The translations under genes and the position numbers were made by a program. DNA of 64,000 nucleotides from Escherichia phage vB_Eco-B1.1. Positions 42,375 through 43,436 of this stretch are shown one piece after another. Location: sequence record ON871820, one strand, 5' to 3'. The notes beneath the pieces were generated by a model, which was not told the origin of the DNA, did no database searches, and saw nothing but the letters and a program-made list of their open reading frames with translations. Each line of letters starts with the position of its first letter. Within the stretch, counting starts at the first letter, position 1.

Positions 42375-42908
42375 ATGAAACGATTAGTATTAGAAGTTAG
42401 TCCGCTTTTTGGTGAATTGGCTATAGAAAAAGTAAATAACATGTATCGTTTGACGCAAGAAGACGATATGCTATATTTTACGCCTAGTGAAATCATTCAT
42501 TTAACCCAAATTGAATATCCTTATACTGATAAAATAGTAAGCATCAATGATGAGCACAAAATTCATTTTTATTCTTCATGCCCAGGATTTAATATTAAAA
42601 GTGAGTCAATGTGTTTATCAGTTATCCATTGGAATAGTTTTATAGCTAAGATTAAATATTTTTATTATTCTAATGAAAGAAAACATAGTTTAAAATGGCT
42701 CAAAAATTGTAATGCTATTATTACTAACGCTTGCAATCAGAATGATGAAACTCTTTTAAATGTATCAAAATGTTATGAAGATGGAGATGTCTTAACTATT
42801 CGTCAAATTGATGATTTTCGAGCGCATATTGTCACATTTACCAAAGATGAAGCTATTGCACTAAAGACTTATCTTGATTCTGTTATTCCAACTATGATTT
42901 CAAAGTGA
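42375..42908 (+). CDS. hypothetical protein, paralog of 42915
   Basis: 177 aa; C-terminal ...KDEAIALKTYLDSVIPTMISK. Confidence 0.55.
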   Translation: MKRLVLEVSPLFGELAIEKVNNMYRLTQEDDMLYFTPSEIIHLTQIEYPYTDKIVSINDEHKIHFYSSCPGFNIKSESMCLSVIHWNSFIAKIKYFYYSNERKHSLKWLKNCNAIITNACNQNDETLLNVSKCYEDGDVLTIRQIDDFRAHIVTFTKDEAIALKTYLDSVIPTMISK

Positions 42909-42914
42909 GGAAAT

Positions 42915-43436
42915 ATGTTTATTTCAAGTGGAAGTGGTTTAATTCGCGTTGAATTTAAAAATGACATCTTTCTTATTCAAGGAGATGATATTATTAAAAT
43001 GAGTTATGACGAAATCAAGAAAATTTGTCATGCTCTTGAAAGTCATGGAAAGGTGAACGCTGTTATTGATATTGGCGATTTATGGGTGACACTTTATGAA
43101 GTATCCGAAGGATTTAACATTGAAGATGAAAACAACATCTTAGCTATTGATAAAAGAAGTGATTTGTTTGATGTATTAAAAGTTTATGAACAGTCAAACG
43201 GTGGAAGAAAAGCCGTATTGATTTATCAAAAACCGCATTCATGTGGAACTGCTTCAATCATTTCAAATATTGAAGATGAAACTGATACCTATATGTGTGT
43301 TTTGAAAGCTGGTGGTGACCGTCATCCGGATTTTATTTCTATTCGTCAAAACAATGGAGAAATTTCATTATCAAAATCAGAAGCTGAAGCTATGATTAAG
43401 TATTTAACAACTGTTACACCTTCAATGAAAGGATAA
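42915..43436 (+). CDS. hypothetical protein, paralog of 42375
   Basis: 173 aa; C-terminal ...SKSEAEAMIKYLTTVTPSMKG. Confidence 0.55.
   Translation: MFISSGSGLIRVEFKNDIFLIQGDDIIKMSYDEIKKICHALESHGKVNAVIDIGDLWVTLYEVSEGFNIEDENNILAIDKRSDLFDVLKVYEQSNGGRKAVLIYQKPHSCGTASIISNIEDETDTYMCVLKAGGDRHPDFISIRQNNGEISLSKSEAEAMIKYLTTVTPSMKG

Follow-up and report, generated by a model that had tools for sequence, protein, structure and literature searches.

Two diverged MobD.1-family genes side by side in a T4-like phage: family membership, predicted fold and history of the locus

Introduction

Two adjacent genes of similar size in Escherichia phage vB_Eco-B1.1 (sequence record ON871820), here called A (42375..42908) and B (42915..43436), raise the question of whether they are related, how they came to lie side by side, and what their products might do. 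They are located in a 64,000-nucleotide (nt) stretch of DNA, the window, which is a segment of a Tequatrovirus (T4-like) genome; its positions 42000-44000 were matched in 505 phage records, of which 359 covered the greater part of the query, for the most part at 90-99% identity. A preliminary description, made from the letters of the window, had taken A and B for a tandem duplication with divergence and had listed their function as unknown. The current analysis suggests that the pair is real, that both genes are functional members of the T4 MobD.1 family, and that their proteins have a predicted three-repeat fold resembling that of Pur-alpha.

Relationship of A and B

Both genes lie on the + strand, exactly at the coordinates first given, and encode proteins of the ~20 kDa class, with 177 amino acids (aa) for A and 173 aa for B; the C-terminal motifs quoted for them were both found. 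In BLASTP, the two proteins aligned over their full length (27% identity, 176 columns, E 3e-9). The similarity is not confined to the last 20 residues, since removal of the last 25 residues still left E 4e-6 and a Smith-Waterman z of 8.7 (1000 shuffles), and the N-terminal domains alone gave E 2e-5 and z 7.5. The claim of paralogy is therefore correct.

Both proteins scored far above the gathering cut-offs of two Pfam models, PF24449 (T4_y05I_N; A 1e-38, 132.3 bits; B 2e-34, 118.5 bits; cut-off 24.9) and PF24448 (T4_y05I_C; A 9e-21, 74.5 bits; B 2e-23, 82.7 bits; cut-off 27), which places them, by sequence, in the y05I/MobD.1 family. PHROG 1502 was matched end to end by each of them. A match of B to DUF7189 fell below the gathering score and was disregarded, and an NCBIfam search returned no matches. 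The N-terminal domain spans residues 4-100 in A (42384..42674, + strand) and residues 2-95 in B (42918..43199, + strand). The C-terminal domain, residues 105-174 in A (42687..42896, + strand) and residues 102-171 in B (43218..43427, + strand), carries the conserved motif ...TKDEAIALKTYLDSVIPTM in A and the motif ...SKSEAEAMIKYLTTVTPSM in B.

Gene A is the ortholog of T4 mobD.1 (UniProt name y05I; PF24449 and PF24448; PHROG 1502), with 85% identity to it in tblastn and up to 98% identity in other Tequatroviruses. Gene B, of the RB32ORF097c type, is a diverged second member of the family; it has the same two domains, length and genome position as T4 MobD.1, but is ~27% identical to A and is missing from T4, where mobD replaces it. 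At an identity of at least 90%, B was found in 433 phage records. Among annotated loci, the MobD.1-family slot between the mobD.2 region and nrdC.11 was seen in T4, ACG-C40, sutha, T6, wV7, APCEc01, JS98 and VR7. Both genes are under purifying selection, with ratios of nonsynonymous to synonymous substitution rates (dN/dS) of ~0.23 for A and ~0.13 for B, next to 0.05 for NrdC.11 (6-7 Tequatroviruses). The similarity outside the motif, the domain matches and the purifying selection together confirm that the pair is real; both genes are functional.

The two genes are separated by 6 nt, and at the junction of A stop and B start (TGAGGAAATATG, 42906..42917, + strand, read from the sequence) the GAGG Shine-Dalgarno sequence of B overlaps the TGA stop codon of A, which is consistent with coupling of B translation to that of A. 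The neighbouring junctions are similarly tight: the stop codon of the Tudor-domain gene lies 1 nt upstream of the A ATG, the B TAA is followed after 2 nt by the ATG of an open reading frame (ORF) for a small membrane protein, and the stop of this ORF overlaps the ATG of NrdC.11 (junction ATGA). Early transcription proceeds along the + strand, through tk, rI, the mobD.x genes, nrdC.11 and nrdC.10. On the opposite strand, the sole ORF overlapping A and B has 51 aa.

Predicted fold

AlphaFold2 monomer models had a mean predicted local distance difference test score of 80 for A and 77 for B, with ~90 in the N-domains and 55-80 in the C-domains. Each model contains three strand/helix repeats, two of them corresponding to PF24449 and the third to PF24448. 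Beta-beta-beta-beta-alpha units are paired as a pseudo-symmetric domain, the arrangement of PC4-like, PUR and Whirly proteins, and the C-domain is made up of strands and a long helix. A PUR/Whirly/PC4-like fold resembling that of Pur-alpha is predicted for both proteins. What had been given as an unknown function is thus narrowed to the y05I/MobD.1 family and a predicted fold.

According to a review (PMC7549692), Pur-alpha is the sole reported protein in which repeats I-II make up an intramolecular domain (type I) and two copies of repeat III an intermolecular one (type II). On paper, the MobD.1 family has the same layout: the N-terminal domain of A, with two beta4-alpha repeats, would be an intramolecular PC4-like/PUR-type domain, and its third repeat is a proposed dimerisation half-domain. 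The most conserved segment of the family is the C-terminal helix motif K-x-E-A/L...Y-L-x-x-V/I-x-P-T/S-M. Repeats 1 and 3 aligned weakly in structural register (P 1e-3), with an invariant Gln ending the equivalent strand in each, and the internal repeat test found nothing when repeat 2 was compared with repeats 1 and 3. Pairing of repeat 3 between molecules is indirectly suggested by the occurrence of stand-alone C-domain genes, the lower confidence of the C-domain as a monomer, the conservation of the motif and the alignment of repeats 1 and 3.

At the sequence level, neither A nor B matched the PurA/PUR repeat Pfam profile at E <= 1, and the PUR-family signature was not found in them. Alignment of the family with human PURA by hhalign was not significant (E 0.11, probability 0.5%), but was nonetheless in structural register; across repeats I-II, the PURA sequence used for this comparison is identical (100%) to that of PDB 8cht. 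The family profile gave only a chance match among PDB sequences (CsoS1D, E 0.8), and a fold search of BFVD returned essentially family members only.

Pur-alpha (PURA; PDB 3k44, 5fgo, 8cht) is a eukaryotic protein with an isoelectric point (pI) of 9.5 and no significant sequence similarity to A or B, whereas the phage proteins have an acidic pI of 4.5-5.9, their C-repeat is predicted to be five-stranded, and their dimerisation and nucleic-acid binding are putative. Whirly proteins and trypanosome MRP1/MRP2 are basic and tetrameric and, unlike A and B, have no third repeat. The Whirly motif is KGKAAL, and no such motif was noticed in A or B. Borrelia Bpur, PC4/Sub1 and a PC4-like protein of phage T5 are single-repeat homodimers, whereas in A and B such a unit follows a two-repeat domain within one chain. 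ChmC of jumbo phages, a homotetramer with a disordered tail that is essential in nucleus-forming phages, is unrelated to A and B in sequence and was absent among the fold-search matches. SsgA/SsgB-like cell-division proteins are actinobacterial, lack the third repeat and have no sequence similarity to A or B.

Possible function

A and B are tentatively regarded as anciently diverged, separately maintained MobD.1 members whose products would be three-repeat dimers binding single-stranded RNA or DNA early in infection, a proposal held with somewhat more doubt than confidence. What the data show is the homology of the two proteins, their place in the family, the purifying selection on both genes and the fold predicted for them; dimerisation, ligand and role were inferred. 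The Tudor-domain gene, A, B, the small membrane protein gene and NrdC.11 would form a string of early genes that is apparently co-transcribed. Each of the two proteins, acidic and of ~20 kDa, would have three beta-strand/helix repeats, with repeats 1 and 2 packing as one PC4-like (PUR/Whirly-type) domain and repeat 3 forming a half-domain that completes the same fold only by pairing with another repeat 3. Because repeat 3 is incomplete alone, A and B are expected to be dimeric and joined via the conserved C-terminal motif.

Homodimers must suffice, and a heterodimer cannot be obligatory, since T4, Mosigvirus, Dhakavirus and one B-only lineage carry a single copy. Where both genes are present, A:B heterodimers may form, comparable to the MRP1/MRP2 hetero-oligomer; Pur-alpha and Pur-beta are another precedent for a heteromer. 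The likeliest activity would be binding of single-stranded RNA or DNA in early infection, modulating the expression or handling of nucleic acid. A nucleic-acid ligand is proposed by analogy with Pur-alpha, Whirly, MRP1/2 and phage ChmC, well-studied relatives with such a layout, and the Pfam label 'putative transcription factor' presumably stems from the same kind of fold analogy.

Charge, together with conservation, is the main evidence against a nucleic-acid ligand. The proteins are acidic throughout the family (pI 4.5-5.9, and 4.4 for the N-domain of B) compared with 9.5 for PURA repeats I-II, and Gln, Glu and Asp account for most of the polar positions that are conserved, a single Lys being near-invariant. 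Judged by charge and conservation, the basic/aromatic beta-sheet surface expected for binding was not found. It is also possible, though less than probable, that the same fold and dimeric layout serve a protein ligand. By analogy with SsgA/SsgB and PsiB, which use related folds for protein-protein contacts, A and B would then be acidic early factors of host takeover or counter-defence, binding a host or phage protein or mimicking nucleic acid towards it, and the two paralogs would cover differing target variants.

It is improbable that the MobD.1 family is a second lineage, besides eukaryotic Pur-alpha, which joined type I and type II PC4-like domains and turned acidic, the A:B heterodimer mimicking nucleic acid, or serving as a decoy, to counter a host protein that binds single-stranded DNA/RNA or acts in defence; if true, this would account for the rapid allele turnover at the locus. 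It is very unlikely that A and B use a PC4-like scaffold for catalysis, for instance as metal-dependent nickases like AcrIIA22 whose activity would draw on the acidic residues of the Q-E-D-D and N-I-E-x-E motifs. In favour of this are conserved acidic positions (E13/E18, D25/D31 and E72/E77), one near-invariant Asn and the precedent of a PC4-like anti-CRISPR with nicking activity (PMC8545432).

Origin of the pair

An identity matrix and a neighbour-joining tree were used to trace the origin of A and B. In these, the clade of B, which also includes P0007 and P0010, was 25% identical to A, as distant as any inter-genus pair. A was 44-47% identical to the Mosigvirus proteins and 34% to that of Dhakavirus (34-35% across Dhakavirus and Gaprivervirus), all above the A-B value. 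The two copies were not mutually closest in either the tree or the matrix, as recent tandem duplicates would be. Thus the paralogy of the preliminary description stands, and its tandem duplication with divergence is only partly supported, B not being the nearest relative of A in the tree.

P0010, of the B type and with 57% identity to B, stands alone, with no second copy, in a T4-like contig (L007) with the order Tudor, B-type, membrane, RlaP. This contig is a mosaic with respect to the window, with 99% identity in NrdC.10, 78% in NrdC.11 and 29% in the membrane protein. The distance between A and B and the existence of a single-copy B-type lineage indicate that the split is old. From the sequences, the pair may have arisen either by an ancient duplication in situ followed by differential loss, or by recombination that juxtaposed diverged alleles.

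The second possibility, in which recombination united two pre-diverged alleles of a single locus that stemmed from different T4-like lineages, is quite conceivable, though short of probable. In its favour, B is no nearer to A than to the MobD.1 proteins of other genera (25-31% identity), and P0010 occupies the place between the Tudor and membrane genes alone in a mosaic contig. However, an ancient duplication with differential loss predicts an identical pattern, loss and fusion are directly seen at the locus, and the tree in question is effectively unrooted and built from short, saturated sequences.

Fusion is represented by P0011, a natural chimera of 179 aa whose N-terminal part is the first two-thirds of A and whose C-terminal part, fused in register, is the last third of B. 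It substitutes for the A and B pair in 6 metagenomic contigs (e.g. L013 2501-3040, L014 2501-3040, L015 1306-1845) and, by its sequence, is the product expected from recombination between tandem paralogs. In another protein, P0054 (210 aa, from an ENA contig), the first ~50 MobD.1 residues run into the C-terminal portion of NrdC.11, as if a deletion had removed what remains of A together with B and the membrane gene.

Distribution and gene replacement in T4

Homology between the window and T4 spans 42377-42933, ending 19 nt into B, and restarts at 43896, 1 nt before nrdC.11. Positions 4038-4056 of L003 (T4) correspond to 42915-42933 of the window, so that the B start codon and first 19 nt are kept right after mobD.1. 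Between the equivalents of 42933 and 43896, T4 carries the mobD HNH homing-endonuclease cassette, replacing the remainder of B and the entire membrane ORF. It follows that T4 descended from an arrangement of A, B and the membrane gene. On this comparison, the T4 locus reads as a precise gene-replacement footprint and a clean example of homing-endonuclease-associated replacement. At an identity of at least 95%, mobD was found in only 47 records.

In Mosigvirus, Dhakavirus and Gaprivervirus, one MobD.1 homolog is followed by the membrane gene and then nrdC.11, and one Tegunavirus has only a stand-alone C-domain gene. A HMMER scan of 1.84 billion representatives yielded 27 clusters at E <= 1e-3, the family being very narrow; stand-alone C-domain homologs of 65-87 aa were among the clusters found. 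P0059, a 1572-aa beta-helix protein, gave 13 C-domain 'matches'; these arise from 13 near-identical repeats within the protein itself, which has no y05I Pfam match, and were dismissed as an artefact.

In T2 (AP018813; L012 1977-3056), ECO4, fPS-90 and Bas43, A and/or B are broken into two or three short ORFs, which may be genuine pseudogenes or may result from frameshifts in the assemblies. Should the splits be genuine, the genes would be dispensable under laboratory propagation.

Flanking genes and promoters

Directly upstream of A lies the Tudor-domain gene (42095..42373, + strand; phage Tudor domain PF24144, E 8e-40), and downstream of B the small membrane-protein ORF (43439..43900, + strand), the same neighbour that follows MobD.1-family genes in several genera, and NrdC.11 (43897..44910, + strand), a nucleotidyltransferase of the RlaP type (PF10127, E 2e-11). 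As described earlier, the membrane ORF holds an in-frame TGA (43502-43504). This is codon 22, which reads CGA (Arg) in ACG-C40, sutha, wV7, CrRp10 and T6; a single C-to-T nonsense change relative to five relatives favours a recent pseudogene or a sequencing variant, and the TGA is probably not a recoding site.

The Tudor-domain gene and a DUF7438 gene are missing from T4, where mobD.2 abuts mobD.1. In the window, a 61-aa ORF at 41920-42105 encodes a DUF7438 protein (PF24219), and its GenBank label 'helicase loader' looks unfounded. Four consecutive small genes in contigs L013-L015 (mobD.4, mobD.3, mobD.2a and the 61-aa gene) all belong to DUF7438, which points to a second tandem paralog array just upstream of the pair (small genes at ~41177-41760).

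The nearest upstream candidate transcript start for A and B is an early-promoter-like site of the T4 type at 41759..41787 (+ strand; TTTACA-17-TATAGT with an upstream TG; a consensus match only), and three further GTTTAC...TGGTA sites of the window can be aligned with it. A scan for sigma-70 promoters and terminators gave counts no higher than the shuffled expectation, and only the site at 41759-41787, by virtue of this alignment, was retained. The T4-early-type promoter-like repeats (GTTTAC, ~17 nt, TGGTACTATACAACTATC) occur at ~40966-41010, 44918-44960, 46346-46390 and 41759-41787. Such repeats explain a recurring peptide, 'GTIQLS', at three mechanically called ORF starts (40980, 44907 and 46346), which are thus over-extended. 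NrdC.10 probably starts at an internal ATG near 44973, giving 322 aa, as called in L007. Translational coupling of NrdC.11 and NrdC.10 was considered and dropped, the first ~22 codons of ORF 44907-45941 (344 aa) overlying early-promoter-like sequence.

Annotation and significance

The pair is found, with annotation, in hundreds of GenBank genomes. It falls within Pfam and PHROG families, and the T6 GenBank record carries the remark 'similar to mobD.1; RB32ORF097c' for B and 'replaces mobD' for the gene after it. A literature search for mobD.1, y05I, T4p097, NP_049711, PF24449 and PF24448 found no functional study, the sole relevant mention being a table entry for the mobD insertion site. Several database names appear erroneous. 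MobD.1 orthologs are called 'molybdopterin-guanine dinucleotide biosynthesis protein MobD' in RefSeq records (L001, L009 and others) through name confusion, NrdC.11 is called 'thioredoxin' in several records, and the T2 fragments of A are called 'prohead core scaffold protein' and 'integrase/recombinase'.

What is added here is the reading of a Pur-alpha-like three-repeat fold, the caveat that the family is acidic, the evidence for a deep split between A and B, the 19 nt of B that persist in T4 and the natural A/B chimeras. These findings leave the current understanding of T4-like phages unchanged, and their value is modest. The Pfam label 'putative transcription factor' fits poorly with the acidic charge of the family. 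A T4 orphan family gains a concrete structural hypothesis, that of a Pur-alpha-like three-repeat dimer, and the locus also illustrates the fusion of paralogs by recombination.
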